From the NCBI GenBank assembly GCA_016716525.1, contig JADJWE010000002.1:579951-643950 (forward strand): a DNA stretch of 64,000 nucleotides, given 5' to 3'. How positions within the stretch are numbered: the first letter of the stretch is position 1; every line of letters begins with the position of its first letter. This document shows, piece by piece, positions 19,618-64,000 of this stretch. Below the pieces are notes generated by a model. The model was not told the origin of the DNA. It made no database searches and was given only the letters and a program-made list of their open reading frames with translations. Made by a program: the position numbers and the translations under genes. Source of the stretch: Candidatus Flexicrinis affinis. Its GTDB lineage: Bacteria > Chloroflexota > Anaerolineae > Aggregatilineales > Phototrophicaceae.

Positions 19618-20528
19618 ATGACACAGCGGGTAATCACGCTGGAAAACGCATCTTGGAAGGTCGGAATTCTGCCCGAGACCGGCGCATCGGTCGCGTTCGG
19701 ACAGTTCTGGAACGGCAGCACATGGATCGACGTCATGCGCCCGACCGATCCGGCCGACTACGGCAACGCGTCCAAGTGTGCCAGCTTCATCATGCTGCCG
19801 TGGTGCAACCGCATCCGCGAAGGTGTCCTCAAGACTGCCGGACAGCGCTATCAACTGCGCACCGCGCCGGAGGACAACACCGCCCGTCATGGCGACGTGC
19901 GCAATCGACCGTTCAAGGTCGTCAAAGAGTCAAATCATGCCGTAACGTGCACGTTCGATAGCCGTGACTTCACCGACATCAACTGGCCGTTCGCGTTCAC
20001 GGCGCAGGTGCGCTATTTGCTGGACGGTCCACGCTTCACGTGGGACCTACAGATTCGCAACGTGGACAAGCGGTCGTTCCCTGCCGGCTTCGGCCATCAT
20101 CCGTATTTCGTCAAGACGAACACGCCGCCCACCCTGCAAATTCCGTGCACGCAGCAGTTCGACCTGCTGGACTCATTGGCGCACAGCGCGCCTCGCACGG
20201 TGGACCCCGCGCTCAACTTCGTCAAGCCCCGGCCGATGGGCGACCGCGTCTATGACGACGTGCTGACCGGTCGCATCCCGATGGTCGCGTACGCATGAGC
20301 TGGGACGAGCTGGACGTGATTCTTACGCTCGATGCCGAACCCGTGTTTGCGCATTGGCTGTTGTATGCGCCCGAGGGCCAGCCGTTCATCGCGCTTGAGC
20401 CGATGACCAACGTCAACGACGGTTTCAACCTCGTCGACGCCGGAATCGAAGGCTCGGGCGTGTTTATCCTGTCACCCGGCGAAATTCGCAGCGGCGCGTT
20501 CTCGATGACCGTGATGCTGGCCGACTAA
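19618..20528 (+). pseudogene. Aldose 1-epimerase (galactose mutarotase-like) family protein, split into two frames at about 20290-20297 (as sequenced)
   Basis: The N-terminal 226 aa (frame 1) and C-terminal 77 aa (frame 0, containing the conserved 'FIALEPMTN' region) together make one ~300-aa epimerase. The junction is an ATGA overlap. It is either a sequencing indel or a genuine frameshift. Confidence 0.65.
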
Positions 20529-20531
20529 CAC

Positions 20532-21641
20532 CTAAGCAGACGCAAATCGGACGGAATAGATTGGTGGCAGATTGCCGCCCAAGCACTGCCACGATTCACC
20601 GCGGTCGCTGGATAAGTACAGGTTGCCGGTGGTCGTACCGAAGGCCAGCGTGTCGCCGCTCAAGTCAAGCGCGTGGCGGAACACGACGTCAAACGCCGCG
20701 CCTTGCGGCAGGCCGTTTCGAAGGGCCGCCCACGTATTTCCACCGTCTTCGGTGCGGCACACGCACAACGCGCGATCAACCGCGATGCGGAACTCGGAGT
20801 CGATGGCCGGGACGACCCACGCCGTATTTGCATCATGCGGATCAACCGCAATCGGAAAGCCGAAATACGCAGGCGCTTCAGGCTGCGAGATGTTCTTCCA
20901 TGTCTTCCCGCTGTCGATACTGCGGAACACGCCGCAGTGATTTTGTTGCCACAGCACGTCCGGGTTGGACGGCGACATCAACATGAAGTGCGGGTCGTGC
21001 CCGAACTCGGATGTCGGGTCGGGCAGAAAGTCGGCATACAGGCCGCTGTTGCGCGGATGCCACGTCGCGCCGTCGTCGTGCGTTTCATACACGCCGCCGC
21101 AGCTAATGCCGACGACGATGTGCGCGCTGTCGCGCGGATCGACGCAGATCGAGCACAGGCCCGGATGATCGCGCCCACCGCCGAACCACCATTCGCTGCG
21201 CTCCGACCGATCCCACAAGGACTGCACCAGTTCAAACGACTCGCCTCCGTCGTCACTGCGGAACAAGCCGCCGGGTTCGGTGCCGATGTACAGACGTTCG
21301 GGCTGATCAGCCCCGCCGGGCTGGATGATCCAGATATAGCTGAGCTTAGCCGGCGTCTCGCGCCGATCGCCCCCGGGAAAACCGACACTCTGTACGGCAC
21401 CGTCGGGAAACACCGGCACGGGAACTTCTTGCCACATTGCACCCACGTCGTCTGACCGGTGCAGTTTCTGCCCCCAATGGCCATGGTCGAGGCCCGCCCA
21501 CAGCGTGCCGGTACGCGGATCTCGCATTGCGTAGCTCACGGGCTGAGCACGGAAGCTCTCGCTCTTGTAGCGCCACGCGCCGTTGTGCCGTTCGTACTGC
21601 AGCAGTCCCTTGCGCGTGCCGAGTATCAACAGGTCGCCCAT
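20532..21641 (-). CDS. BNR/Asp-box repeat beta-propeller protein
   Basis: Six S/T-x-D-x-G-x-T/S-W/F boxes (SDDVGAMW, SDDGGESF, HDDGATW, SIDSGKTW, TEDGGNTW, SSDRGESW). There is no signal peptide and no N-terminal RIP motif, so it is not a canonical sialidase. Confidence 0.65.
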   Translation of the reverse strand: MGDLLILGTRKGLLQYERHNGAWRYKSESFRAQPVSYAMRDPRTGTLWAGLDHGHWGQKLHRSDDVGAMWQEVPVPVFPDGAVQSVGFPGGDRRETPAKLSYIWIIQPGGADQPERLYIGTEPGGLFRSDDGGESFELVQSLWDRSERSEWWFGGGRDHPGLCSICVDPRDSAHIVVGISCGGVYETHDDGATWHPRNSGLYADFLPDPTSEFGHDPHFMLMSPSNPDVLWQQNHCGVFRSIDSGKTWKNISQPEAPAYFGFPIAVDPHDANTAWVVPAIDSEFRIAVDRALCVCRTEDGGNTWAALRNGLPQGAAFDVVFRHALDLSGDTLAFGTTTGNLYLSSDRGESWQCLGGNLPPIYSVRFASA

Positions 21642-21643
21642 AA

Positions 21644-21940
21644 CTATCCCCCCGAAAGTGCCTGCATGAAAAATACGACTTGATCCTCTTTGACGCGGTC
21701 GGCCAACGTCGTGCGATCCAGCACGAACTCGTCGCCGATGAAGACGTTGACGTGCTTGCGCAAGGCACCGCGTTCGTCGACAAAATATGACGCGATTCCC
21801 GGATAGCGCGCGTCGAGCGCCTGCACGACGTCCGCCACGGTATCGCCTTGAACGGTGATCCCTTGTTCGAGCGTTGGGAAGAACTTCTGCAGATGTGACG
21901 TGAATCGGGCGCGTGGCATTGACTGTTTCCCGTCAGTCAT
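21644..21940 (-). CDS. MoaD/ThiS/CysO-like ubiquitin-fold sulfur-carrier protein ending in Gly-Gly
   Basis: About 90-98 aa. The pattern (...LRKHVNVFIGDEFV...DQVVFFMQALSGG*) matches the MoaD/CysO beta-grasp family, with a C-terminal GG. Its stop lies 2 nt before the start of the BNR gene. Confidence 0.6.
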   Translation of the reverse strand: MTDGKQSMPRARFTSHLQKFFPTLEQGITVQGDTVADVVQALDARYPGIASYFVDERGALRKHVNVFIGDEFVLDRTTLADRVKEDQVVFFMQALSGG

Positions 21941-21988
21941 CTGGTTGCAGTGTAGAACAAAAGTGCGAATTCTGTCAACCAGCGGCGA

Positions 21989-22618
21989 TCAGTCGAGGCG
22001 AACCAGTCCGCGCTGAACCGCGATACGCACCGCCTCGGTCCGGTTCCCGGCGCTGAGCTTGCCCAAGATGGCGCTGATGTGGAACTTGACGGTGCGTTCG
22101 GTGATGACCAGCGCGGCCGCGATTTCTTTGTTGAGATGCCCCTTGGCCAACAAGCGCAGCACGTCCATTTCGCGTTCGGTCAGGCTTTCGGCCGGCGGCG
22201 CGCTGAGCTGACGCAGCAGCTTGGACGCCACGACAGGTTGCAGCAGCGAGCCTCCGCCAGCGACGACCCGCACGGCCTCGAACAATTCGCCGCGCGGCAC
22301 CCCCTTGAGGAGGTAGCCCTTCGCACCCGCTTCGACCGCCTTGACGATACGTTCGTCAGTGTCGAAGGCGGTGAACACGATCACGCGCACGTCCGGCGCG
22401 CGCTGGCGCAGTTGAGTCAGCGCGTGGAGCCCGTCCACGCCGGGCATCTCGAGGTCGAGCAGGATGACGTCAGGCCGCAGCGCGCAGGCTTGCTCGACCG
22501 CCTGCTGCCCGTCCGCCGCCTCGCCCACAACGGCGAAATCGGGCTGCGTGCCGAGCACCATCGTCAGGCCGTCGCGCACCACGGGATGATCGTCTACGAC
22601 AAGAATGCGAATGGTCAT
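21989..22618 (-). CDS. NarL/FixJ-family response regulator (receiver + LuxR-type HTH)
   Basis: MTIRILVVDDHPVVRDGL...D54-like context. The C-terminus has 'LTEREMDVLRLLAKGHLNKEIAAALVITERTVKFHISAILGKL'. Its ATG overlaps the kinase stop (ATGA). Confidence 0.85.
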   Translation of the reverse strand: MTIRILVVDDHPVVRDGLTMVLGTQPDFAVVGEAADGQQAVEQACALRPDVILLDLEMPGVDGLHALTQLRQRAPDVRVIVFTAFDTDERIVKAVEAGAKGYLLKGVPRGELFEAVRVVAGGGSLLQPVVASKLLRQLSAPPAESLTEREMDVLRLLAKGHLNKEIAAALVITERTVKFHISAILGKLSAGNRTEAVRIAVQRGLVRLD

Positions 22619-23770
22619 ACATCCCCCACCGGCACTTCGACCACGACACGCGTCCCCCGCCCGGGCGCAGACGTCAGCCGAAAACGCCCGCCAAGCAGAC
22701 CGGCGCGCTCGCGCATACCGGTCAGCCCATAACGATCCGACGGCGCTAGTTCGGGATCGAACCCGACACCATCGTCGGCGATCGACAGCTTGACCTTGCC
22801 GCGGCTCAGCGCAAGCGACAGTGATGGTCGACGCCTGCGCGTGGCGGGCGATGTTGGACAGCGCCTCTTGCATGATGCGGATGAAGCCGTTCTCGACGTG
22901 CGGCGGCAGGTCGATCGCGGTGAGCTGCAGTTCGACATCAAAGTTAAAGCGCCCGCCGTAATCACGCGCCAGCGTCGAAATCACGTCGGAGAGCGTTCGC
23001 CCGTCAAGCAGCGAAGCGCGCAGGTCCATGACCGACCGGCGGGTCTCGTCCAGCCCGTGCCGCACGCGGCCTAACGCCTGCTGCACGATCGAACGGACGC
23101 GCTCGCCGCCGTCGACCGACTCAAGGACGGCATCAGCGGTCTCGAGCTGGAGCGCGATCGACGTCAAGTCCTGCGCCAGCGTGTCATGGAATTCACGGGC
23201 GATCCGCACGCGCTCCTCGGCGGCGCCGGTTTCGGCACTGCGGCGGAACAGCCTCGCCCGTTCGATCGCCACGCCGAGCATGTCGGCGATGGTCGCCAGC
23301 AGGCGCAGTTCGTCGGCATTGAGCGCGCGCTCGTCGGCGCTGGTGACGTTGATCAGGCCGAGCTTCTTGCCGTGCGCGTCGATCGGCACGGTTGCGTGAT
23401 AGCGCAAGCCGTCGGTGCCGGTCATCGTGTCCTTCAGGCGCGAGCACTTGATCACGCTGATGTTCGACGCGCCGGACAGTTCGCCGGACTCGTAGTCGTC
23501 GATGCACGTACACCACGTGGTGCCCTTCATGCGGTGCGGATGGTCGGCCAGCGCCGGCGGCAGGTTCTGATGCACGGCGAGGCGCGCGTTTGCGCCGTCA
23601 TCGTCGGTCAGCCACACCCACCCGGTCTGCAGGTCCATCAACCGCACGACAAGGCTGAGCGTGGTACGCAAGGCGCGCTGCACGTCCAGCTCGGCGTTGA
23701 GCGCCTGCGCGATTTGATTCAATACGGAGAGTTCGGCGTTGCGCCGGGCGAGGTCAGCGGGCGTATTCAT
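22615..23770 (-). pseudogene. GAF-domain sensor histidine kinase (HisKA_3 H-box + HATPase_c), reading frame broken at about 22835 (as sequenced)
   Basis: The N-terminal GAF domain and H-box (REFHDTLAQDL) are in one frame. The HATPase_c domain ('KVKLSIADDGVGFDPE...GTRVVVEVPV') is in another. The switch is at 'atcactgtcgcttgcgctgagc'. Without it the kinase is full length and ATGA-coupled to the regulator. Confidence 0.75.
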
Positions 23771-23798: not shown

Positions 23799-24438
23799 CT
23801 ACCCGATCAGCACGACATGTACCTCGACGGGGCCGTGCGCACCCAGTATGAGTTCCTGTGCAATGTCGGCCGTGCGGCTTCCGCCGGTGATAAACACGAC
23901 GTTGGCGCTCTCGCGGAAGTGCGTCAATCCCGAGGCAGAGACCTGTTCGAACCACGCCTCGACATCCGGCAATATCTGATCGGCGCGAACCACCGCGATA
24001 TGCACCGGCGGCAGCAGTGATGCAAAGCGTGGTTTTCCCGGCCCGCTCGATACGACGAGGCTTCCCGTTCCGGCAAGTGCTGCCTCGACACCAGTCAGCC
24101 CGACGCGGGCCGACGGATCGCGCACGTCGGCGGGCGTAATCCCGCGCGCGTTGAGCGCCTGGCCAACCCTCCAGCGAAATCTGATCCGGATCCCGCGATG
24201 ACCTGTTTGTCATCCCCGATCACTCGAGCACCCGCCCAAGCGCCGCCTTGTCGTCAGCGCACGGCCACAGCGTCACGCCGACGCGTGCTGCCGCCGCCGA
24301 AAACGCGTCGCGGAGCGCATCCGGCGATGTGTCGGCCATCGGCACGACCCGCACCGGATCGGGGGTGGCAGGGATGTTCAGCGCCGGATTTGTTACCGCG
24401 CGCAGGCGTTTCAGGATGGATTCTCTGCTCGACATCAT
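23799..24438 (-). pseudogene. lutC: Lactate-utilisation protein C (LutC/YkgG family), two frame changes between 24125 and 24220 (as sequenced)
   Basis: The N-terminal 72 aa ('SRESILKRLRA...LGRVLE') and the C-terminal 108 aa ('...LVVSSGPGKPRF...VVRADQI...VVLIG') are LutC-like but lie in different frames. A third frame carries 'VIGDDKQVIAGSGSDF' in between. The breaks lie in gggg/ggg runs. Confidence 0.6.
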
Positions 24439-28794: not shown

Positions 28795-29802
28795 ATGCGA
28801 ATTGCCGTATTCAGCACCAAACCGTACGACCGCCAGTTTCTCGAAGCCGCAAACGGGTTTCATGATTTCAAGCTGAAGTACTTCGAGACGCGCCTGACCA
28901 GCGAGACGGTTCAAGTCGCTGCCGGCTATGACGGCGTGTGCGTATTCGTCAACGACGTGCTCGACGCCGAAGTAATCGAGCGATTGTCCGCCGAGGGCGT
29001 CAAGCTGATCGCACTGCGGTGCGCCGGCTTCAACAACGTGAACCTGCACGCTGCCGAAGAACACGGGATGACAGTGGTGCGCGTTCCCGCCTACTCCCCC
29101 TACGCGGTGGCCGAGCACACGGTCGCCATGATGTTGTCGCTCAACCGCAAGATTTACCGTGCACACAACCGCGTGCGCGAAGGCAATTTCTCGCTCGACG
29201 GCTTGCTGGGGTTCGACCTGCATGGCCAGACCGTCGGCGTCATCGGAACCGGCCAAATCGGACAAGTGGTCATCCGTATCATGGCCGGGTTCGGCTGCAA
29301 GGTACTGGCTTACGACCCCTACCCGAACCCGGAGGTCGAACGCCTCGGTGGATCGTACGTCGCGCTGGACGACCTGCTCACGCACTGCGACATCATCACG
29401 CTGCACTGCCCGCTGACTCCGGAGACGCGCCATTTGATCGACGCCGAGACACTGGCCGTGTGTAAGGACGGCGTGATGATCGTCAACACAAGCCGCGGCG
29501 CGCTGATCGACGCCCTCGACGTCATCGAGGCGCTCAAGTCCGGCCGGATCGGGTATTTGGGATTGGACGTCTACGAGGAGGAGGCCGATGTCTTCTTTGA
29601 AGATCTATCGGGGCAAATCCTCAAAGACGACACGTTGGCGCGGCTGATGACGTTTCCGAACGTGTTGATTACCAGTCATCAAGCATTCTTCACGCGTAAC
29701 GCGCTGCAGAATATCGCCGAAACGACGATGCGCAACATCGCGCTGTTTGCCGCCGGCAAGTCCGCGGAAAACGCGGTCGGCATCGAACGCGTCAAACGCT
29801 AA
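28795..29802 (+). CDS. ldhA: D-lactate dehydrogenase (D-isomer-specific 2-hydroxyacid dehydrogenase)
   Basis: Near-colinear match to the fermentative LdhA pattern ('[12 protein letters not shown]', '[12 protein letters not shown]', '[15 protein letters not shown]', 'GVIGTGQIG', '[12 protein letters not shown]'). Start reassigned to the ATG at 28795 with a GAGGGA RBS. Confidence 0.85.
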
Positions 29803-29820
29803 TTCAAAAGGAGGACACGC

Positions 29821-30741: not shown

Positions 30742-30745
30742 CCAA

Positions 30746-30772
30746 AGTGCCCCCTCAGGTCGAGGGGGCACT
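30746..30772. terminator. Bidirectional intrinsic-terminator-like hairpin between convergent genes
   Basis: agtgccccctc / aggtc / gagggggcact is a perfect 11-bp stem. It sits between the LLM stop (30741) and the YeaQ stop (30799). Confidence 0.5.
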
Positions 30773-30798
30773 CTCTATTACGGTACGGGTTCAGTGCG

Positions 30799-31056
30799 CT
30801 ATGCGCGTCGCAGGAACCTGACTGCCGCGATCACGATAATCGCGCCGATAGTTGCCGTGACGATGTGTAAGACGCTCAGGCCGGTTGTCTCGAAATCGGT
30901 GCCGGTCAACAGGCCAATAACCCAGCCGCCGACGAAGCTGCCGACGATTCCGAGGATGATGTTCATAATGAGGCCCTGCGGGTTGCCCATGATCATGCCA
31001 GCAAGCCAACCAGCGATGGCGCCAACGACGATCCAAACGAGGATATTCACCAACAT
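30799..31056 (-). CDS. GlsB/YeaQ/YmgE-family (transglycosylase-associated) small membrane protein
   Basis: 85 aa with three TM helices and glycine-zipper motifs (GAIAGWLAG, GIVGSFVGGWVIG). Confidence 0.75.
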   Translation of the reverse strand: MLVNILVWIVVGAIAGWLAGMIMGNPQGLIMNIILGIVGSFVGGWVIGLLTGTDFETTGLSVLHIVTATIGAIIVIAAVRFLRRA

Positions 31057-46449: not shown

Positions 46450-46560
46450 AGCGCCATACCGCTGTAACCGGATACGCGACGCCGCGCAAACCTACACACA
46501 CCATAGGTCAGCAGCGGCTTACAATACCGGTAACGAATTGTGCGCAGCCCGCAGCGGCTC

Positions 46561-52184: not shown

Positions 52185-52364
52185 CAGGTCCCGAGCACCC
52201 GTCGTCGCGGATGCTACTCAACAGCATACACATTGTAGCGCAACGTTACTTGCACAAGTTTTGTGAATTGCGTCCGGACCCATGCGCGCTGCGACAACAT
52301 GACAGAAGTCATCGGGATCGCACGATTTTCTATAGATTCATGTAGATCTTTGGACATTTACCGA

Positions 52365-52370
52365 TATAAT
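52365..52370 (+). promoter_or_regulatory. Candidate -10 hexamer TATAAT upstream of hemH
   Basis: 'ccgatataatg' sits in an AT-rich divergent intergenic region 32 nt upstream of the hemH start. No good -35 is found at the 17-nt spacing. Confidence 0.3.
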
Positions 52371-52401
52371 GTTCGAGTCGTCACCCATCGAGTTAACGCG
52401 T

Positions 52402-53475: not shown

Positions 53476-53912
53476 ACGACACAACCCCGCACTCGACCTT
53501 GTTCAAGCCGCTTTCCGCCCCGGTTCGATACGCGTTAATCGCGTTCGGCTTCGTGTTCGTGGCCGTCGGGCTGATTGGCACGGTCGTGCCCGGCCTGCCG
53601 TCCACGATCTTCTTCATCCTCGCGGCGCTGTGTTTCGGGCGGGCGTCGGAGCGGTGGTACCAGTGGCTCGTGACGCGCCCGTTCGTCGGCAAGCACTTCC
53701 ACACGTTCATGCAAGGCAAAGGCCTCACCGCACGCGCCAAGACCATCGCCATCGCGGCGTGCTGGATCATGCTGCTCGCGCTGGCGCTCACGGTCGTGAT
53801 CAGCGCCGGGGGACGGGCTGCGCTGGCGGTGACGGCGCTCATTCAGGCGTTCGTCGTGCTGCGCGTGCCGACCTATGTCGAGCCTGAGCCCTCGCTCGCC
53901 TCAGGCGATTAG
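53472..53912 (+). CDS. DUF454/YbaN-family inner-membrane protein
   Basis: 146 aa with a 'GLPSTIFFILAALCFGRASERWYQWL' core. It overlaps the hemH stop (ATGA-type coupling). Confidence 0.65.
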   Translation: MNDTTPHSTLFKPLSAPVRYALIAFGFVFVAVGLIGTVVPGLPSTIFFILAALCFGRASERWYQWLVTRPFVGKHFHTFMQGKGLTARAKTIAIAACWIMLLALALTVVISAGGRAALAVTALIQAFVVLRVPTYVEPEPSLASGD

Positions 53913-54020
53913 ACCGGATTACTGTTAGGACCGGCGCGGAAGCCTGTCAGGTTCCGGTTAGCGACTGGCTGTCGTTCTATACTCGTGCGGATGTGTCCGG
54001 CCCTACCGGGAGGCCCGCCG

Positions 54021-55782
54021 ATGTTCCGCGCCCTGACCCTGATTGTCTGTATCGCACTGCTGGCAGCGACCGGCGCTGCTGCACAGGATAGCCCGTACCT
54101 GACCGGCACCTTGACGACCGTGGACGTCGGCGGCGTCGAGCGTCAGTACGTGCTGTTCGCGCCGGATGACCTGCCCGCCGATGCGCCCCTTGTCGTCGTA
54201 TTGCACGGCCGATTCCAGTCGGCTCGGTCGATCGAGGCGTTCACGCACCTAAATGCCGCCGCGCAAGAAAACGGCTGGATCGTCGCGTACCCGAACGCCG
54301 TCAACGGCAGTTGGGAGGACGGCGGGCGCGAGTCCGGCCTGCCGCGCACTGGCGATCCGGTCGATGACGTCGGGTTCTTCGACGCGGTCGTCGCCGACGT
54401 GACCGCTACCCACAGCACCGGTTCGATCAACGCGGCAGCCTTCGACACCGGCGGCACCCTGCTCCAGCGCATCCTGTGCGAAGCTGAGACCGAACTCGAC
54501 ACGGCGATGCTGGTCGCGTCGGTGGTGTGGTCGCACACGCTGGAACGCTGCGCCGAGGCGCGGATCGATACGCGCATGCTGCTCGTGTTCGGCGCGCTCG
54601 ACTCGATTTACGAGCCGCTGGGCACGACCTTCGACACCCTGCCCCGCCCGGACGGCACGCCCAACCGCCGCGGCGGCTTTGACGAGACGGCCAAGTTCTG
54701 GGCGTCACGCGCGGGCTGCGACCCGGACTCGACGCAGACCGGTCAGTCGGTCGTGTTCGAAGGCTGCCCGATCGACGGCCAAGTGACGGCGATGCTGCTG
54801 CCGAGCGCCGGGCACGAATGGCCGCGCTCCGGCGACTACGCGATCACCGGCGGGTTCAACCCACTGCACGACGGCGTAACCTTGCTCGGTGAACTGCTGG
54901 CGGGCCGCCTGCCGGTCGATCCGGTCGATCCGCCCGACGTGCTCGTGCCGCCGCGCACATTCATCGCCTACGTGCCGACAGCCTACACCGCCGACGCGCC
55001 GCTGCCCGTGGTCGTCGCGCTGCACGGCCGGCCCGACACCGGTGCCGGATTCGCCGCCATCACCGCCATGACGCCGATTGCCGAAGAAGAAGGCTTCATC
55101 GCCGTGTTCCCCGACGGCGTCGACAACCAGTGGAACTACCTCGAAGGCGTGACGGGCGAAACGCCGTACAACTATGTGAGCGACGTGCGCTTCCTCGACC
55201 GGCTGATCGACGACCTCGCCGTCGACCTCAACATCGACGCGGCACGCGTGTACCTGACCGGCTTCAGCAACGGCGGATTCATGACCTACCGGATGGCCTG
55301 CGAGCCAACCGTCAACCGCTTTGCCGCGTTCGCCGTGGCCGGCGCGCTGATGTACCCCGAGTTTCAACCGCCGTGCCTTGTCAGTCCGCCGCGCCCGATG
55401 CTGATCGAGCACGGCACCGAGGACATCAGCATTTCGTGGGACGGCATCACGCACATGCCCGCCCCCCGGCCACCTCGCCGTGACGCTTAACGTGCTGCAA
55501 TCGGTGAGCTTCTGGGCCTCGCGCAACGGGTGCGATCCGACCCTGACCGAGCGATTCGAGTATCCGCGGGCGGACGAGCTGACGGCCGTCATCCGCTTCG
55601 ACTTCGTGGAGTGCGCGGGCGCGCCGGTGACGTTCTACGCCGTGATGGGTGGTGGGCACGGTTGGCCGGGCGTGGATGTCGTGCCGGAGCGCATCGCCGG
55701 GAACAACACGCACGACATCCACCTCACCCACGAAATCTGGGACTTCTTCAAGGATCAGCGCTTGGTGGAGAGTGGTCAGTAG
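54021..55782 (+). pseudogene. Secreted tandem-domain esterase (PHB-depolymerase/LpqC-like alpha/beta-hydrolase, duplicated), with a frame break at about 55465 (as sequenced)
   Basis: Signal peptide (MFRALTLIVCIALLAATGAAAQ) and two homologous halves ('VVVLHGRFQS...' and 'VVVALHGRPDT...GFSNGGFMTY'). The last ~100 aa are in the 55480..55782 frame. The break is in a C6 run ('gcccgCCCCCCggcc'). Confidence 0.6.
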
Positions 55783-56216
55783 GCAGGAGTCAGGTGTAAG
55801 TACCCGACCTCACCCCGCGTCGCTGCGCCCTCTCGAACGAACCTCACCCCAAACCCCTTTCCGCCTCGGAGAGGGGCTTTCAAATCCGGCGTGTGTTTCT
55901 CCCCTCTCCTCGGGAGAGGGGCCGGGGGTGAGGTCTGTTCTGGCCGGGGGTGTCGTTACGCTTGGCGCACCGACCGCCTACTCGTAGGGACGCGATATAT
56001 CGCGTCCGGTGGCGGCGGGCCGATCGCGTTCGCGGACGCCATGTATGGCGTCCCTACCACACCGTGCTTATTCCGCTGCTGAGATCACTCCGCCACGCTG
56101 CGCTCCGCTATCCCTCGCCCTGAGGGGGACGGGCGTTCGTGTCCGGCGCGAGTCGTTCTCCCCTCTCCAGTTGGAGAGAGGTCGGGGGTGAGGTCTGCTT
56201 TGGGCGACGTACTTAC
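55783..56216 (+). repeat. Composite intergenic repeat, copy 3: a 430-bp MITE-like array of hairpin modules filling a convergent intergenic region
   Basis: Starts 1 nt after the esterase stop with M1 'gcaggagtcaggtgtaagtacc'. Contains three M3 hairpins (55854..55876, 55901..55937, 56160..56197), the last two each followed by 'cgggggtgaggtctg'. A 73-nt nested palindrome spans 55985..56057 (ggacgcgata|tatcgcgtcc and ggacgccat-gt-atggcgtcc, framed by gtaggg...ccctac). Imperfect terminal inverted repeats share GTAAGTAC and GACCTCACCCC (55796..55816 vs 56184..56216). Confidence 0.7.
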
Positions 56217-56221
56217 CATTT

Positions 56222-57499
56222 CTACGGCGTCGACGTCGCTGTAGCCACCATGCACGGCCAGGTCCCATACGTCGGACAGTCCTGAACGAGTGGCTCGCCC
56301 GGGGGATCCTCGGCCCAACTGTACCCATGTCCCGGGTACGCAAGGTTGAAAAACGAAATGGCGTCATTGCTACCGGCCAGCCGATCCACATAGAACGCAA
56401 GACCCAATTCCGGGTACGCGATCACGATAAGATCTGGAGTCGCCGCTTTCGCGGTGTCATGTATCGTTGCGACTGGCGGTGAACCGAATACTTCAACGAC
56501 GACGTCTACGGTTGTATCGAGGCGGCCATTCAATTGGTCGACCATGCCTGACACGATGTGTACGTCGATCGCTGAATCTGAGAATAGGAGTGGCAAGTCA
56601 GGGGCGTACCACTGAATCTGACCAGGCAGAACATAGTACTGGATACTCGCGCTTACGAGAGAATCGACTAACTCCTGCTCGGTCGTGACATTCGGCTGGA
56701 TGCCGAGAAAACAGTTTCGCTGACAGTCCGGCCCGCTGAACAGGTTCAGCAGCGCCTGCCCTTCGGTTGAGAGCGACTGTTCGTCCATGTCGGCAGATGT
56801 AGAAACGGCGGTCGGCGTCGCCGTCGGCGCGATACATGGGGCCACATCGTATGTTGCGCACTCTTGGGTCACTGGTGTGCCGGGGGGATGACTTGGCATA
56901 CCGACTCGGTTCTCAGGCTCAGTCAGAAACAAATAACTAGCTCTTTGGGTGTTCTGTGTTGCGTCTACAAAAAACAGTAGGCCCAAGTCTGGATACCCAA
57001 CTAAGTACATGGGGAATTGATACGTTACGACCTCTGGCGCACCGAAAACCTGCAGGATTGCGCTCACGCGGACACCTATCGGAGCGGCAACTTGAATCAC
57101 GGTGCGTTGATCATCTTCTCCGACGGTAATAGTAAATCCGAATGGATCGACTCCATCGTTGACCCCCGCGATCAGCTCAGGTTCCCAGTAAATCACGCCA
57201 TACTCAAAGTGGTATGCTGTGTTGCTCTGTTCGAGGGATGACACAATCTCCGTCGCGGTAGTAACCCCGGGCTCGAGTCCCATATAGCACAGTGGCGAAC
57301 ATTCGCCTGCGAATAGACTGTTGAGGATTTTCACTTCAGATTGCGAATCGAAAGCCGATTGCCCGCCGCCGCCAGTGGGTGTTGGCGTCGTCACGGGCGT
57401 GGATGGCACGGTCGGCTGGGCTTTTGACAGGCCGAGCAGCACAATGCCGAACAAGGTAACTAACAGGCATCTAGACAAGAGGTTCATTGAACATGTCAC
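56222..57499 (-). CDS. Hypothetical secreted protein with an internal tandem duplication, in a low-G+C islet
   Basis: Signal peptide and a Thr/Pro linker. Two ~170-aa repeats ('LNSLFAGECSPLCYMGLEPGVTTATEIVSSLEQ...' and 'LLNLFSGPDCQRNCFLGIQPNVTTEQELVDSLVSAS...'), each with conserved Cys pairs. I recognise no family. Confidence 0.5.
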   Translation of the reverse strand: MTCSMNLLSRCLLVTLFGIVLLGLSKAQPTVPSTPVTTPTPTGGGGQSAFDSQSEVKILNSLFAGECSPLCYMGLEPGVTTATEIVSSLEQSNTAYHFEYGVIYWEPELIAGVNDGVDPFGFTITVGEDDQRTVIQVAAPIGVRVSAILQVFGAPEVVTYQFPMYLVGYPDLGLLFFVDATQNTQRASYLFLTEPENRVGMPSHPPGTPVTQECATYDVAPCIAPTATPTAVSTSADMDEQSLSTEGQALLNLFSGPDCQRNCFLGIQPNVTTEQELVDSLVSASIQYYVLPGQIQWYAPDLPLLFSDSAIDVHIVSGMVDQLNGRLDTTVDVVVEVFGSPPVATIHDTAKAATPDLIVIAYPELGLAFYVDRLAGSNDAISFFNLAYPGHGYSWAEDPPGEPLVQDCPTYGTWPCMVATATSTP

Positions 57500-57681
57500 C
57501 GATCCAATCCGACAACAGCCCGTTCAATGGACGCTGGCGTGGAGATGATGCGGGTCAATCACCCGAAGCGTAACGCCGGATAACCATACCCGGCCAGTAC
57601 CGTTGGCATGGCGTCGGGATGCCGGTAGTCAGGAGTTGCCGCGCGTGGTCTGTGTCGCAATAACCCCTTCCGTCCGTCGCC

Positions 57682-58868
57682 TCACGCCGGCGCGCCGCGG
57701 AACCGGCCCGCCCTTGACGCCAGCGCGATCGCCGCGACCGCCAAGACCATCAGCAGCGTATACGCGCTCTGCATGCCGAACGCGTCGGACAGGCCGCCGA
57801 AGACCTGTACCGTGCTGATCACGGACAGCGACGCGATCATCCCGAAGCGCGCGCTGGCCCGGTTCGCCGCCGGCCCCGCCACCTGCATCCCGCTCGAGAC
57901 GCTCAACGGGCCGAGGTTGCCAACTCCCAGCCCCATCAGGAACAATCCGGCGATGTTCAGCGCGGGGTGTGTGCCCAGCCAGTACAGCGGAAACGTCATC
58001 AGCACCCATACGAAGGCCAGCAGCAGCACGCGCGAGTCGGGCATGACATCCAGCAAGCCGCCCGATGATGCGGCCGAGCGATCGCCACCGCGAACACGCG
58101 CGCTCATCACCGACGCCGACGTGCTCCGGGTCGAGCTTCACGACCGTCGAGAAATACGTCGCGCCCAAGCCGGAGATGAGGTTTTCGATGCCGATGGCGA
58201 GAAACGCGAGGACCGCAAAGAACCAGAATGCGGCCGGAAGCGGCACGACTCGTGCGCGGCGCGCCGTCGCCGACGTTTCGGCCGGCGCTGTCGCCGGCGC
58301 CGGGATCGCCAACCCGGCGAACAGCATCCGGTACAGCCCGACGGCAGCCAGCGGAATGAGCGGAATGGCTTGCCAGCCCAACGGCGAGCGCGCGATCATC
58401 CCCGCCAAAATCGGCCCGGCGATCATCGGCAGGCCGGCGATGATGTTGGCCTCGGCATACGCTTGGCCGCATGTGGGCCGGCAGCGACCGATATGGCCGT
58501 TGGCGACCATGAAGACCGAGCCGATCGCACAACCGAACACGAACATCGACGCGATTCGTCACCGGCAGCGATCCGCCGAACGCCACGCCCAAAAGGCCGA
58601 TCCCGACCATCACCGCCGCGACCCACACCATCCGGTCGCTGCCCACGCGCGCGACGATTCTATCCGCGACCAGGCTGACGATGATGATGCCGACCGACGA
58701 GACCGTGAAGTGATAGCTGATCTCGGTGAACGTCAGGTTCAGTTTCGCGCCGAGGAACGGCATAGTCGGCCCGATGAGTGAGATCCGGAGGCCAAAGAAC
58801 GCAAGAAAATGCGTAGCTGAACCATGTTGTCGCGTCCGGACGAAGGCGGCAGCGGGTTCGTTAACCAT
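57682..58868 (-). pseudogene. MFS transporter with at least two frame breaks (as sequenced)
   Basis: Three consecutive frames (58868..~58560, ~58546..~58100, ~58100..57682) each carry contiguous MFS-like TM sequence. The rest of each track ORF is Arg/Ala-rich noise. Confidence 0.65.
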
Positions 58869-58939
58869 TCAGGGACATCCTTCACGAACGCGATGGGGTC
58901 ATTTCGCGACATCAAGCGGCAATCGCTATAGCCTAGCCA

Positions 58940-59000
58940 GACGAAGGGGCGACCGCACGGCCGCCCCCGTAAAACCTACCCCTCCTCGGTGGAGGAAGTA
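58940..59000 (-). repeat. Degenerate relative of the composite intergenic repeat (M2-like + M3-like)
   Basis: 'ggggcgaccgcacggccgcccc' is followed by '..cctacccctcctcggtggaggaag'. It lies between the SBP stop (59083) and the MFS start (58868). Confidence 0.35.
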
Positions 59001-59082
59001 TCACACTTTCCTCTGTGTCCTGCGCGCTTGTGTGGTTTAGCCTGCTCCCACAGCACGCGGCAGCACACGACACCCGTGCGGT

Positions 59083-59989
59083 TTATTCGCCGCCCGGCGT
59101 GATCTCAACATCCATCGGCTCCCACTCTTCGCCGGTGACGTCGACCATGTCATCCATCGCCAGCGACTCGAGCGCCGCCTCGACCAGATCGGTGCGGAAC
59201 GCGCCTTCGCTCGGCTCTTCGCTGATGACCGAGCCGTCGATGGCGACCGCGACGGTCTGCGCCCACAGGTCTTCGTCCAGCATGCCAATGCCATCCGGCG
59301 ACGGCCAGATCAGGCGGTTGATCTCGTTGAGCTGCCAGCGCATGTGGCCTTCACCGAGCGTCGGGCCGTTGTCCAGCACGATGTCGACGCACTCGTCGAA
59401 GTTGTCACGGCAGAAGATCCAGCCCTTGATCGAGGCGCGGATGAACTTGATCGCGATATCTTCGTTGCCTTCCTCGGCAAGGAACGACTCGGTGGTGAAG
59501 ATGATCCTGCAGCATGGCCCGTGCCGACGTCGTTGGGCGCGCAGCGCGGCAAACAGCTCGTGCTCGTTGCCGAAGCCCCACGTGCCGACGCGCTTGCCCG
59601 CCATGTCCGCTATCGACGTAATGCCGGCGTCAACGAACGACACTTCCAATGTGCCTGAGCGCTGGAAGATCTGGGCGACGTTGACCAGATCGGCGCCAGC
59701 CTCGCGGCTCTCGAGCACCTTCGGCACCCACGCGATGCCGAATTCGGCCGCACCCGATGCGACGACCTGCTGCGGCACGATTTCAACGGCGCCTTCGAGG
59801 ATCGTGACGTCGAGTCCCTTCTTCTTCATAGAAGCCCTGAGCCAACGCCGCATAATAGCCGGCGAACTGCGACTGGGCGACCCACTGCAGCTGCAGGCGA
59901 ACGGGCACGAGGTCTTGCGCGCCGGCGGTACCGCCCACGAGCAAAGCAACCAACATAACAACTGCGAGCACTGCACTAAACTTACGCAT
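59083..59989 (-). pseudogene. ABC transporter substrate-binding protein, NMT1/THI5 (SsuA/TauA-like) family, with a frame break at about 59820 (as sequenced)
   Basis: The signal peptide and first ~55 aa ('MRKFSAVLAVVMLVALLVGGTAGAQDLVPVRLQLQWVAQSQFAGYYAALAQGFYEEEG') are in the 59783..60154 frame. The remainder ('LDVTILEGAVEIV...FIRASIKGW...') is in the 59083..60051 frame. The break is at 'gaaGGGactcg'. A GGAG RBS precedes the start. Confidence 0.65.
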
Positions 59990-60174
59990 AGAACTCCCCC
60001 TGGAAAGAGTTGGCCTTGCAGGAAACACGAATCGCGCCTCCTCAACGCCATAATCTATCGAATCTGGTGACAAGTGCCAAAATCTCGTGTGCACAAGAAT
60101 TGCCGCGGCCCATTGTCCAATCCTGACAATCGAGGCTAAACTGAGGCGGCACACGCGCGAATAAGGGGTACGCC

Positions 60175-60963
60175 TTGTCGATTTCCACCCGCGATCTACT
60201 TGTCACAGGACTGGTGTCGGCGCTGTTGATCATTGTCACGCTCGCCGGCCTGAGCCTCGTGCCGGCGTCGACATGGGACGCGATGCGCCCGGCCACGTGC
60301 CTGCCGACGGCATGTTTCTGCGAAGCGCCGCTGACGACCGAGTCGATCCGTCAACCGGTCAACGCGGTGTCGTCGCTGGCGTACGTCATCCCCGGCGCGT
60401 GGATGCTGGTGACCGCCGGACAGGTCGCGGTTGGCGTGATCTTCGGCACCGGCCACCGTATCATGATGGGCCTGAGCGCAATCGTAATCGGCGTTGGGAG
60501 CGCGTTCTACCACGGCTCGCTGACGTTCGTGGGGCCAGTTTTTCGACATCCTCGGCATGTATCTGTTCGCCGCCCTGCTCCTGATCTACGCCCTGCAGCG
60601 GCTGTACCGTTGGTCGTTCACGACGACTGCGCTGATCAGTGGTCTTCAACCTCACGCTGACGATCCGTACAGATCGGCGTGCCGGACACGCGCCGGTACG
60701 TGTTCGGGATCGTGCTGGCGCTCGCGCTGCTGGCCGAGGCGGTGGTGTGGCAGGTGCTGCGGCCAACGCGGAGCTACGCATGGTTTTGGGCCGGCATCGG
60801 CGCGTTCGCCGTCGCCATGGTGATCTGGGTGCTCGATCTGACCGGCACGGTGTGCGACCCGACTTCGGTGATTCAGGGCCACGCGGTGTGGCACGTGCTT
60901 GGTGCGGTGGCGGTCTTCTGCACGTGGATGTGGCATCACAGCGAGCCAGCGCCTGCACCCTAG
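60175..60963 (+). pseudogene. Alkaline-ceramidase-family (ACER-like) 7TM hydrolase homologue, with two compensating frame breaks (as sequenced)
   Basis: Family hallmarks in order: 'CEAPLTTESIRQPVNAVSSLAYV' (C-E...P-N..S..Y), 'SAFYHGSLTFVGQFFDILGMY' (S..YH...GQ..D) and 'QGHAVWHVLGA' (H..WH). The middle segment (60540..~60650) is in the +1 frame because of an extra g in 'gtGGGGcc'. The frame returns before 60679. Confidence 0.55.
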
Positions 60964-61078
60964 CGACTGTTCAGATTCTGTATACGTCTCTAAATGCAGC
61001 ACAAACCTTTTTCACACCTCGCAGTGCATCAGGTCGTCGTACACTGATTGCAGTCGAACGTGGACTGAGAACGCTGTC

Positions 61079-61327
61079 ATGGCATCGCGGCTGAACCCTG
61101 TACAAATGCTGTCCCTGATCGGGCACACTGCGCCGGCGAAGTTCGAGCTGACGTACGGCCGCGAGGCGCGGCTGGTGTTTTACGTCCGGGAGCGGCATGC
61201 AAGAGGTTGCGACTTCCGATCTGAGACTGTTGCGGACGTGCGTGAGGCCGTCCAGCATATGGGCTATCGCCAGATTGACGAGTGGCGGCGCAAAGGCGAA
61301 GGCGGCTACGTCTTCGTACGGGGATAG
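61079..61327 (+). CDS. Hypothetical small protein (about 83 aa)
   Basis: The track ORF begins at 60899, but the upstream part is AT-rich and non-coding-like. Met at 61079 gives 'MASRLNPVQMLSLIGHTAPAKFELTYGREARLVFYV...'. No family is recognised. It is followed immediately by a repeat copy. Confidence 0.35.
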   Translation: MASRLNPVQMLSLIGHTAPAKFELTYGREARLVFYVRERHARGCDFRSETVADVREAVQHMGYRQIDEWRRKGEGGYVFVRG

Positions 61328-61339
61328 GTGGAAGTCGCC

Positions 61340-61440
61340 AGCTGTCCGGAGTCAGGTGTCAGTAACCGCGGACTAGCGTAGGTAATCGACGTCGTAGCGC
61401 AGGGTCGCGGAAGCCCACTTCGGCCATCCCCTACCCGGAC
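61340..61440 (+). repeat. Composite intergenic repeat, copy 4 (M1 + divergent tail)
   Basis: M1 'ccggagtcaggtgtcagtaacc' begins 13 nt after the upstream stop (61327). The tail contains '..cgtaggtaatcgacgtcgtagcg..' and 'cccctacc'. Confidence 0.55.
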
Positions 61441-61480
61441 ATGAGGTATACTTTTCAACATACAGGCCCGAGGTCCAGCC

Positions 61481-62047
61481 ATGTTTGAGTCCCCAGAAAA
61501 GACAATGACCCTCGACGAGTTTGTCGCGTTTGTCGAGCGTCAAGACGATGCTGTCACTTACGAACTTCACCAAGGAGAAGTCATCGAGGTGTCTCCCTCA
61601 AAGGCGAAGCAGACGTTCGTAGCGGTCTCGGGTTGCCCGCATCCTTGATGCGTTTGTAGACGAACGTGGTCTGGGGATTCGTTGCTACGACCGACGGGGT
61701 TTCAAGATCACGCCATCTGACTTCTACGTACCGGACGCCGCCTACTACTCGCGACACCGCCTGCCGCAGGTTCCTGACGACGACTTCCTTCCTGTCGCTC
61801 CGACCTCGCGGTGGAAGTCGTTTCCGATAGCGACACGTACTCTGTACATCGAAAGGCTCTGCGCTACATCGAACTGGGTGTGCGCTTGGTTTGGGTCATC
61901 TATCCCAAGGGGAAATCGGTTGACGTGTACGAACCGGCCGAGGGTGGCGGTGCAATGGTGAGAACCTATCGGTTCGATCAGTCGTTAAGCGGCGGCGATG
62001 TCCTTCCCGGATTGTCGGTACCGGTCAATTCTCTGTTTCCAACCTAG
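61481..62047 (+). pseudogene. Uma2-family (DUF820) putative endonuclease with two frame breaks (as sequenced)
   Basis: N-terminus 'MTLDEFVAFVERQDDAVTYELHQGEVIEVSPSKAKQTF' (frame a). Middle 'RVARILDAFVDERGLGIRCYDRRGFKITPSDFYVPDAAYY...' (frame b). C-terminus 'PDLAVEVVSDSD...LVWVIYPKGKSVDVYEP' (frame c). The second break is in 'ccgacctcg', where 'ccggacctcg' is expected. Confidence 0.6.
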
Positions 62048-62846
62048 CCCGTCTCGCGCGTGCCCCCACGGGGCGAGGCGGCGTTCCGCGAACACGATTA
62101 TCGAATAGAACGCGATCCCGATCAGCGACGCGATGACGATCGCCGCCCACGCGCGGTCGGTTGAAGCCGGACGCCTCCTGCGTGATGAACACGCCGAGCG
62201 TCGCGCGCGGCCCGCCGAAGAATTCCGCGACGACGGCGCCGATCATGCTCAAGGGACTGGCGACCCGAAGTGCCGAGAAAATGTACGGCACGGCGTTCGG
62301 GAATGCGCAGTGCGCGCAGGATCTTGAAGTCTCCGGCGGCGTACGAGCGCACTTCAGCTCGAGCTGACGGGGATCGATCAGCGTCAGTCCGCGCACGGTA
62401 TTGATCATCGTCGGGAAGAACACGATGATCGCCACGATCGCCATTTTGGACGCCGGGTTGGTCAGGCCGAACCAGTTGTTCATGATCGGGGCAAACGCGA
62501 TGATCGGCACGCTGTTGGCGGCGATGGCAAACGGCATCATCGCCTCACTCAGTACGGTCCAGCGCGCGGTCACCAGCGCGACAAGGATCCCGCTGCCACA
62601 GCCGAGGATGAACCCGCCCAGCGCCTCGTAGAACGTCGCGCCCGCCGCCTGAAACAAGATCGACCCCTGACCGGTCACGAACAGGTTGACCTCTTCGAAG
62701 AACCGGCCGCCAATCTGCGTCGGCTTGGGCAGGATGAACTGCTGGATGTTCAACACTGTGACCAGCACTTCCCACAACACCAACACTGCGACCGCCACGA
62801 CGATGGTCGGCAGATAGTAGCGGAGGCGTTCAAGTGACTTCGTCAT
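62044..62846 (-). pseudogene. ABC transporter permease, NitT/TauT (SsuC-like) family, with three frame breaks (as sequenced)
   Basis: '...TVRGLTLIDPRQLEL' (frame A), then 'MRSYAAGDFKILRALRIP' (62122..62352 frame), then 'NAVPYIFSALRVASPLSMIGAVVAEFFGGPRATLGVFITQEASGF' (frame A), then the C-terminus 'TDRAWAAIVIASLIGIAFYSIIVFAERRLAPWGHARDGL*' in a third frame. The stop at 62044..62046 overlaps the convergent Uma2 stop. Confidence 0.65.
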
Positions 62847-62847
62847 T

Positions 62848-62956
62848 GGAGTTTCCAGTTTTCAGACATCAGTTGTCAGTCTTTTATTGCCGCAACGTGG
62901 ATAGCCAATCGTCACTCGATCGCCCTTGGAAACTGACATCTGACACCTGATCACTT
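62848..62956 (-). repeat. Composite intergenic repeat, copy 5 (M1 plus an inverted partial M1)
   Basis: Minus-strand reading 4 nt after the ATPase stop gives 'gtgatcaggtgtcagatgtcagtttcc' ... then 'aagactgacaactgatgtctgaaaactggaaactcc'. The two ends are imperfect inverted repeats of each other. Confidence 0.55.
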
Positions 62957-62958
62957 CG

Positions 62959-63747
62959 CTATTCGTCAAAGGTGTGTGCATCACGCAGGAGCTCGCGCAC
63001 TTCGGTGACCAGTTCGAAATAGCGCGGCTGCTCGCGGGTTTCAAACGTGCGCGGGTACGGCAGATCGACATCCAATACCGCCGTGATGCGGCCCGGACGC
63101 GGCGACATCACCACCACCCGGCTGCTCAAGAACACGGCTTCGGCGATGCTGTGCGTGACGAAGATGACAGTCGTCTGTGTGGCCTGCCAGATACGCAGCA
63201 GTTCGAGGTTCATGCGCTCGCGCGTGAACTCGTCCAGTGCGCCGAACGGCTCGTCCATCAACAGCAGCGCCGGCTGAAATGCCAGCGCGCGCGCGATCGC
63301 CACGCCGCTGCATGCCGCCTGAAAGCTGCCACGGGTAATGCTTCGCGAACTTGCCCAGTTCGACCAGTTCGAGCATTTCGGCGGCGCGCTCTCGCGCTCC
63401 GGTTTGTCGATGCCCATGATCTCAAGCGGAAGCTGCACGTTCTTGCCGACTGTGCGCCAGTCGTACAGGGTCGCCGCCTGAAACACCATGCCGTAGTCGC
63501 GGTCGAGGCGGGCCTGGTGCGGCGTTTTGCCGTTGATCACCAGCTCGCCACTGCTGGGCTGCAGCAGGTCGGCGATCAAGCGCAGCAGCGTCGACTTGCC
63601 GCAGCCCGACGGGCCGATCAGCGACACGAACTCGCCGCGCTTGACATCGAGCTGGATGTCTTTGAGCGCAACGACTGGATCGGCGTTCTTGACGGCGAAG
63701 ATCTTGTTGACGCCTTGGGCGCGGATTACTGCGGGTGTCTCAGTCAT
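62959..63747 (-). pseudogene. ABC transporter ATP-binding protein, NitT/TauT (SsuB-like) family, with two compensating frame breaks (as sequenced)
   Basis: Walker A 'GPSGCGKST' and Q-loop, then frame B carries 'LSGGMQRR' (63041..63376 frame), then frame A resumes with 'VAIARALAFQPALLLMDEPFGALD...H-loop'. The start ATG at 63747 overlaps the upstream permease stop (ATGA). Confidence 0.75.
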
Positions 63748-64000
63748 GGCTTTACGTAGAGTGGAATAAAGCGCCGCAGGGCGACGCGTTCGACAAGGCT
63801 GACAATCACGAAGAATACGATTCCGACCGACGCGGCCATCACGATGGGCCTCGCTGTAGCTACTGCTGAAATCGAGGATCGCCCGCGCCAATCCGTCCCG
63901 GATGCTGGACGGCAGCTCGCCGATGATCGCGCCGACGACGCTGGCCGTGGCGCTGACCTTGAGCGCCGTGAAGATGTACGGCACGGCCGACGGCAGCCGC
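63744..64000 (-). pseudogene. ABC transporter permease, NitT/TauT family, 3' part (runs off window end), with a frame break at about 63835
   Basis: '...AVPYIFTALKVSATASVVGAIIGELPSSIRDGLARAILDFSSSYSEA' is followed, after a 1-nt shift in a ccc run, by 'IVMAASVGIVFFVIVSLVERVALRRFIPLYVKP*'. Confidence 0.6.

Follow-up and report, generated by a model that had tools for sequence, protein, structure and literature searches.

Reading-frame breaks in 14 genes of a Candidatus Flexicrinis affinis contig are very probably consensus errors and not pseudogene decay

Broken reading frames and their known sources

Bacterial genes whose reading frame is interrupted are known from several settings. Mycobacterium leprae and recently host-restricted symbionts have genuine pseudogene-rich, reductive genomes, and in bacterial pseudogenes substitutions greatly outnumber insertions and deletions (indels). 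Programmed frameshifting is exemplified by prfB, dnaX and the IS3-family transposases, with phase-variable homopolymer tracts forming a separate class. Long reads also leave indels that fragment genes, a problem that Watson and Warr reportedly described in 2019. Here we examine a 64,000-nucleotide stretch of Candidatus Flexicrinis affinis (Chloroflexota, Anaerolineae; assembly GCA_016716525.1, contig JADJWE010000002.1, positions 579,951 to 643,950 of the forward strand), hereafter the window, in which 14 genes have broken reading frames. A sequence-only reading of this DNA had attributed the breaks to sequencing or assembly error. Our comparisons with independent contigs and outgroups bear this out: the breaks are very probably of technical origin, left in the incompletely polished long-read consensus of a metagenome-assembled genome (MAG), and are not real pseudogenes.

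Frameshifted and fragmented gene calls caused by residual consensus indels are what the IDEEL test measures (PMC9262707). Nanopore consensus indels produce such calls in MAGs unless the sequence is polished, and bins with less than about 40-fold coverage, like data from older chemistries, require short-read polishing; the quality of a MAG depends strongly on microdiversity, and both microdiversity and low coverage worsen the frameshift problem (PMC9262707). For a Danish wastewater Nanopore data set, the MAGs are described as population bins and not as strains (PMC9765116).

The window resembles assemblies with residual indels from Nanopore R9-type or PacBio continuous long reads (CLR) in its homopolymer-enriched small indels, its split and fused genes, the great length of the contig and the arrival of gene fragments in public protein databases, a condition that is worse in low-coverage or microdiverse bins. 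Unlike a uniformly raw long-read consensus, it is strongly patchy, with clean blocks of 4–25 kb, and has many 2-bp changes and three larger events. With pseudogene-rich genomes such as that of M. leprae it shares many adjacent frameshifted genes, some of them hit repeatedly, and occasional larger deletions. However, the ratio of non-synonymous to synonymous substitution rates (dN/dS) in its broken genes is 0.08, nonsense codons are lacking, the lesions do not occur in near-identical strains, indels are far too frequent relative to substitutions, and non-coding DNA is equally affected. The phenomenon is the familiar long-read frameshift problem, not a biological feature.

Lesions, selection and independent contigs

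The window has a G+C content of about 63% and the gene content of a typical heterotrophic Chloroflexota. The nearest species representatives, Anaerolineae MAGs of the Aggregatilineales (Phototrophicaceae), have ferrochelatases with 60–68% amino acid identity and almost no synteny with the window. Public contigs 98.7–99.6% identical to it come from runs SRR11674018, DRR784963 and SRR14023573. Among these, Logan contig L082 (SRR11674018, 5.7 kb) aligns to window positions 57764–63311 and Logan contig L123 (DRR784963, 98.7% identical) to 43473–55898 (12.4 kb). Syntenic relatives with about 80–86% nucleotide identity to the window (L083–L088) served as outgroups. The base-level comparison of indels covers the 19.4 kb of the window for which near-identical independent contigs exist; no such reference for 1–29 kb came out of exact-protein look-ups, the queries of which included lutB, a BNR protein, a ThiS-like open reading frame (ORF) and an ABC ATPase. 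Lesions were located with Pfam profile coordinates, three-frame reading and alignment to intact homologues, the positions of seven lesions (five before 25 kb, two beyond 63.3 kb) resting on more distant homologues. Signs are given relative to the reference: + denotes extra bases in the window and − bases missing from it.

To the right of 19.6 kb 14 of about 40 genes are broken, against none of 16 to the left (Fisher p = 0.005), and the frame breaks are therefore real and not a product of chance. At all 40 sites that can be compared, the near-identical contig (L082 or L123) is intact, or open to the contig end, and L083–L088 have the undisrupted state at the sites covered by their alignments. 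The checked lesions are thus derived and private to this record. Intact genes in L123 are those for GH36, two seven-transmembrane (7TM) kinases, a 552-residue GGDEF protein, a 734-residue kinase, ferrochelatase, a DUF454 protein and a 586-residue esterase; L082 has intact permease, Uma2, 82-residue, ceramidase and NMT1 genes, and its partial ATPase and MFS genes are open to the contig end. The sequence-only reading had proposed a comparison with orthologues, and both the near-identical contigs and the syntenic relatives indeed carry the genes intact.

The substitutions tell of selection. Read in the reference frame over 10.2 kb, the broken genes differ from their references by 97 synonymous (Sd) and 24 non-synonymous (Nd) changes, giving a dN/dS of 0.082. 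From this value it follows that purifying selection has acted on the broken genes during practically all of the time that has passed since the strains diverged. Intact neighbours have a dN/dS of 0.234, so that the broken genes are not higher and the relaxed selection expected of pseudogenes is not seen. In the block aligned to L082, 46 of the 58 coding mismatches fall at third codon positions. Indels in the same block behave differently: 27 of 32 are coding where the coding fraction is 86% (p = 0.8), that is, coding and non-coding DNA are hit equally. The broken genes contain 35 intragenic indels against 121 substitutions, a ratio well beyond what neutral decay would give. None of the broken genes was found to contain an in-frame nonsense codon, as the sequence-only reading had maintained, yet deletions of 191 and 23 bp are present.

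One lesion-bearing product can be followed into the databases. GenBank entry MBK9123814.1 ('MAG: ABC transporter substrate-binding protein [Chloroflexi bacterium]'), a protein of 248 residues carried on a contig of 692,154 bp, is byte for byte the cut-off NMT1 product of the window, the 3' part of the broken gene called as a separate protein. The prediction that annotation of this DNA would be fragmented is borne out by this entry. The identity also means that the window is part of a deposited MAG and that at least the NMT1 lesions are in the deposit. The MBK9 accession range is probably that of the Danish activated-sludge Nanopore MAG project (PRJNA629478). The truncated NMT1 form occurs on a single contig among the 120 best hits listed, and intact forms are found on hundreds of contigs. 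The intact NMT1 protein of a widespread relative, P0004 (363 residues, 93% identical), is present on 257 contigs, including ones of GCA_019187165.1, GCA_016860765.1 and GCA_001567485.1.

Altogether, we count at least 46 lesions between 19.6 and 64 kb, spread over two spacers and 14 genes. Single-base changes (26) and 2-bp changes (11) make up most of the 40 indels seen against near-identical contigs, the remaining three being 4, 14 and 191 bp long; a 23-bp deletion is seen in addition relative to L083 and L088. Thirty-two of the 40 distinguish the window from L082 (20 of 1 bp, nine of 2 bp, one of 4 bp, a 14-bp insertion and the 191-bp deletion). The comparison with L123 yields just eight, all inside the GGDEF, sensor kinase and esterase genes. 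Single-base events consist of 17 insertions and nine deletions; ten of these 26 lie in reference runs of at least three bases and nine in no run at all. Homopolymers of three or more bases are thus enriched 3.6-fold (38% observed, 10.6% expected, p = 2e-4), an enrichment that is modest and not exclusive, and runs at lesion sites never exceed six bases. The claim that every reconstructed lesion is a single-base change in a run of 2–6 identical bases does not hold, as 14 of the 40 indels involve more than one base and nine are single-base changes away from any run of two or more bases, 23 in all. Nor does the statement that no gene carries a deletion, since 191 bp are gone from the NMT1 gene at 59535/59536 and 23 bp from the gene of the upstream permease near 63849. 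The spectrum, a mixture of 1-bp and 2-bp changes with a homopolymer bias, is compatible with a long-read consensus without being diagnostic.

The signs of the indels also show regularities. Between 57764 and 63311, single-base events are 14 insertions against six deletions, and 2-bp events are eight deletions against one insertion. Indels of opposite sign are often paired at short distance (61186/61223, 61673/61696, 63305/63389), and five of the eight genes with several lesions regain their original frame. Such bias and pairing may be a signature of consensus or polishing software.

The unevenness of error density, noted from the letters before, is pronounced. Clean blocks of kilobase scale (1–19.6 kb, 24.6–49.7 kb and 51.3–55.4 kb) alternate with dirty blocks at 49.7–51.3 kb and 57.8–64 kb, in which there is about one indel per 170–220 bp and every gene and spacer is hit; isolated errors lie at 20282, at about 22.8 kb, at about 24.2 kb and at 55462. 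No indel occurs in the 6.3 kb from 43473 to 49735, for which the probability at the mean rate is 2.5e-6, nor in 29388–30865 or 52600–54026. From 1 to 19.6 kb, and from lutB to the second 7TM kinase (24.6–48.3 kb), the genes are either covered completely by domain matches or, where no family matched, read through as plausible unbroken ORFs. Pfam coverage and ORFs agree with the earlier view that the first 19 kb, GH36, GH5, the substrate-binding proteins and both 7TM kinases are intact. Hidden frame errors were looked for by three-frame reading in the ORF at 18394–19488 and in two ORFs at 38.0–39.4 kb, and these read as continuous plausible proteins. No relation was found between the dirty patches and local dS from the references.

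Weighing the explanations

An incompletely polished long-read consensus would account for the breaks as follows. The real genes of an Anaerolineae MAG would be intact, and its consensus would have been left with uncorrected small indels in patches. The noisy long-read consensus, probably derived from a mixed population of closely related strains, would have been fixed only in part by polishing. Dirty blocks would then be regions that escaped correction because short reads mapped sparsely or ambiguously, or because strains competed; alternatively, they could be long-read sequence that bridges a gap in a hybrid assembly. Gene callers would subsequently split the affected genes or fuse them wrongly. 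A 692-kb contig from a metagenome suggests long-read assembly, though it is no proof, and we infer that the platform was one of single-molecule long reads. The patchiness speaks less for a uniformly raw consensus than for one in which short-read polishing failed in part, strains were mixed or gaps were filled in a hybrid assembly, and any of these may be its cause. For the three larger events, the deletions of 191 and 23 bp and the 14-bp insertion, glitches of the consensus and real variation among minor strains are both possible sources.

Several points weigh against this explanation. The reference strains were sequenced in other samples and show about 0.4–1.3% substitutions relative to the window; they are close strains and not the same DNA, and alone they cannot exclude strain-specific mutations. 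The two larger deletions and the 14-bp insertion are atypical of base-calling error. Placement of a few lesions (20282, about 22.8 kb, about 24.2 kb, 63389 and 63849) depends on relatives with 50–94% identity. Finally, of several 6-base homopolymers in the clean blocks, one inside the sensor kinase gene has the same length in the near-identical contig, and the rest do not disrupt their ORFs. Since these runs are right where checked, the record is not simply a raw long-read consensus; by the same token, most of the contig was corrected.

If the lesions were real, the window would belong to a very recent decaying lineage in which a burst of indels inactivated signalling (GGDEF, two kinases) and transport (MFS, the NitT/TauT-type ABC system). 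This we hold to be very unlikely, even though lesions, at least those of NMT1, stand in the deposited record, the references belong to other strains at a divergence of about 1%, two of the differences (the deletions of 191 and 23 bp) look like real structural ones, and several genes have been hit many times in the manner of old pseudogenes. Decay is hard to reconcile with a dN/dS as low as or below that of intact neighbours and with 35 intragenic indels beside just 24 non-synonymous changes. Up to nine frameshifts per gene should have been accompanied by many neutral substitutions and some nonsense codons. What is more, intergenic DNA has an equal density of indels, the lesion blocks cross gene boundaries and strike unrelated neighbours, including Uma2 and the 82-residue ORF, and the distribution of intact and truncated NMT1 forms described above points the same way. 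A localized burst of slippage-type indels in a wastewater-type Anaerolineae strain, for example from a transient mutator or error-prone repair of a segment, before any signal of relaxed selection, is in our estimate very improbable indeed.

The sequence-only reading had offered pyrosequencing or ion-semiconductor error beside uncorrected long-read error. The latter fits the data; the former fits poorly, and miscounting of homopolymers by flow chemistry (454 or Ion Torrent) seems to us highly improbable as the source. Such data do resemble the window in their single-base changes in runs (C5/C6, G3/G4), which shift the frame without creating nonsense codons, and the ten of 26 single-base events in runs of at least three bases are a significant share, the cleanest being C5 to C6, C5 to C4 and G5 to G4. 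However, flow chemistry does not yield events like the 14 of 40 indels of at least 2 bp or the nine of 26 single-base changes outside runs. The errors of the window also come in blocks, and 6-base runs elsewhere are right where checked or preserve the ORF; the 692-kb metagenome contig suggests long reads. That the breaks are functional, as programmed ribosomal frameshifts or phase-variable switches at simple repeats, is hardly credible. The likeness consists in frame changes at short nucleotide runs, a few short G or C runs standing at critical positions, for example within the GGDEF motif. The orthologues have one uninterrupted frame and the shift sites are not conserved, which effectively refutes the idea; the runs of 2–6 bases are far below known phase-variable tracts, and a single gene can have as many as nine shifts, of either sign, with 2-bp and 4-bp changes among them. 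Essential motifs are displaced as well: GGDEF, the ABC signature (LSGG in the ATPase) and the kinase G2 box region are put out of frame, and because such motifs are indispensable, recoding is excluded. An incompletely polished long-read consensus thus remains the explanation that we favour.

The broken genes and their surroundings

That conserved domains run on across the frame changes was confirmed for the 13 genes that the sequence-only reading had named, and a gene for an 82-residue protein brings the number to 14. Four sites given by that reading proved exact (GGG at 49734–49736, C6 at 55462–55467 where the reference has C5, GGG on the minus strand at 59816–59818 where the reference has GG, and GGGG at 60531 where the reference has GGG). 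Its lesion counts were too low for the MFS gene (two; we find nine), Uma2 (two; four), NMT1 (one; four), the ceramidase homologue (two; three) and the permease (three; four), and for the sensor kinase, given as five or more, we count six.

The galM-like aldose 1-epimerase gene (19618–20528, +; 303 residues when repaired) has one lesion, a base missing near 20282. The Aldose_epim profile matches over positions 2–219 of 299 in the first frame, and frameshift-aware alignment places a −1 at residue 222 (20282). Intact homologues of 303 residues include P0121 (94% identical) and P0122, and locus L089 differs by a sole coding indel at 20283. In the GAF-HisKA_3-HATPase_c sensor kinase gene (22615–23770, −) there is one frame change, +1 or −2, at 22795–22831, which displaces HATPase_c (profile 31–109) into another frame at 22618–22965. 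Full-length homologues of 390–400 residues align over both frames; those from metagenomes, at 50–59% identity, locate the break but not its exact base context. Without meeting a stop codon, the upstream frame continues into the gene of the NarL-type regulator (21989–22660), giving a 593-residue GAF-HisKA_3-REC-GerE ORF without HATPase_c (21989–23770, −). This ORF is an artefactual fusion that automatic annotation would call a novel hybrid. The gene for the LUD-domain protein LutC (23799–24438, −) has two frame changes at approximate positions, ~24210–24250 and ~24160–24190, and three-frame reading follows the protein from frame 0 to 1 to 2. When repaired, it aligns to PDB 2G40 through the second junction as far as the C-terminus; the neighbouring lutB and lutA are intact.

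The dCache-HAMP-GGDEF diguanylate cyclase gene (48326–49985, +) has one extra G within the GGDEF motif (GG to GGG, 49734–49736). Profile positions 2–80 lie in one frame and 80–160 in the next, with the junction at 49737, and the intact 552-residue gene of L123 differs by this one indel. Convergent with it is the gene for a PAS-PAS-HisKA-HATPase_c sensor kinase (49982–52184, −; 734 residues when intact), whose six lesions are +C at 49988, −C at 50152 (C5 to C4), −AG at 50179, −A at 50274, +CA at 50889 and −C at 51281 (C3 to C2). Pieces of PAS, PAS_3, HisKA and HATPase_c are scattered over all three frames. The gene is intact in L123 (734 residues, exactly six indels apart) and in L083–L088 (734–735 residues). 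The +C at 49988 destroys the stop codon of the kinase, and the ORF runs about 200 nucleotides antisense through the 3' end of the GGDEF gene (49779–49990); in L123 the two genes overlap by just 4 bp. The gene for an esterase or polyhydroxybutyrate (PHB)-depolymerase-like hydrolase (54021–55782, +; 586 residues when intact) has an extra C at 55462–55467 (C5 to C6). One indel separates it from the intact gene of L123 (586 residues), and residues 1–479 of the L083 protein match in one frame and 480–584 in the next.

In the MFS transporter gene (57682–58868, −), pieces of MFS_1 lie in different frames and pairwise alignment with L082 reveals nine lesions: −2 at 58057, −2 at 58079, +4 at 58097, +1 at 58126, −1 at 58463, −2 at 58499, +1 at 58557, +1 at 58806 and −1 at 58831. 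The spacer between this gene and NMT1 (58869–59082) has four indels in the same alignment (−2 at 58905, −2 at 58946, −1 at 58984 and +1 at 59010). The gene for the NMT1/THI5-type (NitT/TauT) substrate-binding protein (59083–59989, −; 365 residues when intact) carries four lesions, a +1 at 59816–59818 (GG to GGG on the coding strand), the 191-bp deletion at 59535/59536, +1 at 59518 and −2 at 59502. The NMT1 profile match is split between frames. Protein P0001 is intact (365 residues, 99% identical) and P0003 is identical to the window fragment. The 191-bp deletion is followed within 34 bp by the +1 and the −2, so that the net loss is 192 bp (64 codons) and the frame is restored. This restoration could be due to chance (1 in 3) or to one complex consensus or alignment event. 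A search for direct repeats on either side of the 191-bp deletion showed none.

Further to the right, the gene for a ceramidase-family membrane protein (60214–60963, +; 249 residues) has +G at 60531 (G3 to G4), −2 at 60638 and +C at 60665. These sum to zero and the frame returns: profile positions 9–76 and 137–229 share a frame and the middle is displaced. The gene is intact in L082 (249 residues). The hypothetical gene for 82 residues (61079–61327, +) has +1 at 61186 and −1 at 61223 by alignment with L082 and L083–L088, in all of which it is intact, and a 14-bp insertion lies in the spacer just downstream, at 61343. Four single-base lesions break the gene for the Uma2-family endonuclease (61481–62047, +; 188 residues): +1 at 61626, +1 at 61673 (G3 to G4), −1 at 61696 (G5 to G4) and −1 at 61802. 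The joins are visible by three-frame reading, and the L082 copy is intact (188 residues).

Three genes of the ABC system complete the series. The permease gene (BPD_transp_1; 62044–62846, −; 266 residues) has four lesions, seen with Pfam and three-frame reading: +2 at 62352, +1 at 62299, −2 at 62160 and +1 at 62063 (C4 to C5), the last of which shifts the stop codon. It is intact in L082 and L083–L088 (266 residues), with the same four differences against both. In the ATPase gene (62959–63747, −; 263 residues), −1 at 63389 and +1 at 63305 put 28 codons out of frame, including the LSGG signature, as judged by three-frame reading and the L083 protein, and by L082 for 63305. Of the upstream permease gene (566 residues in relatives), the window holds the 3' end (63752–64000, −), the gene extending beyond it; the loss of 23 bp near 63849 fuses its frame to the ATPase ORF, according to nucleotide and protein alignments with L083 and L088, and the join is also visible by three-frame reading.

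Gene order from 46.5 to 64 kb is common to the window and the 93% relatives (L083–L088), relative to which the window has extra genes for the GGDEF cyclase, ferrochelatase, the MFS transporter with an orphan ORF, and the Uma2 endonuclease. The orphan ORF (56225–57523, −; 433 residues) has no Pfam or NCBIfam match, and its third-position G+C is 0.61 against about 0.80 in its neighbours. This ORF and the MFS gene make up a segment of about 3.3 kb that is missing in the 93% relatives, where the esterase gene adjoins NMT1, and this segment may be acquired DNA. Next to it, at 55800–56210, is a cluster of short repeated or palindromic elements, for example GTAGGGACGCGATATATCGCGTCCG / CGGACGCCATGTATGGCGTCCCTAC, and GGAGAGGGGCCGGGGGTGAGGTCTG occurs twice, 260 bp apart. 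These elements look like intergenic repeats of the repetitive extragenic palindromic (REP) or miniature inverted-repeat transposable element (MITE) type. L123 ends at 55898 and L082 at 57764, the edges of a 55.9–57.8 kb stretch that opens with the REP/MITE-like repeats.

Other features were observed in the clean parts of the window. Compared with the DRR784963 contig, the N-terminal third of GH36 (43473–44534) has 62 mismatches in 1062 bp, with a dS of 0.15 and a dN/dS of 0.24; in the remainder of the 12.4-kb alignment dS is 0–0.09 per gene, far below this value. Such a difference points to recombination in this tract or to rapid evolution of the domain. The ORF at 18394–19488 (−) is a single one of 364 residues that joins a short-chain dehydrogenase domain to a C-terminal glyoxalase/VOC domain. 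The longest homopolymer of the window as written, an A10 tract at 37959–37968, lies in the spacer between an AlkZ-like gene and a gene for a secreted protein, in a locally A+T-richer part (38.0–39.4 kb).

These breaks are a matter of data quality, of practical and not of biological weight. Public databases already contain a fragment of at least one broken gene, the 248-residue MBK9123814.1 standing in place of a binding protein of 365 residues, and false architectures have been created, namely the 593-residue fusion and the kinase ORF that runs antisense into its neighbour. Comparison with a near-identical contig, in which selection is strong on substitutions and absent on indels, offers a test of artefact against decay that needs no reads. 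Anyone who inferred from this record the loss of cyclic di-GMP (c-di-GMP) signalling or of a NitT/TauT-type transporter, counted its pseudogenes or used these proteins as members of their families would be misled.

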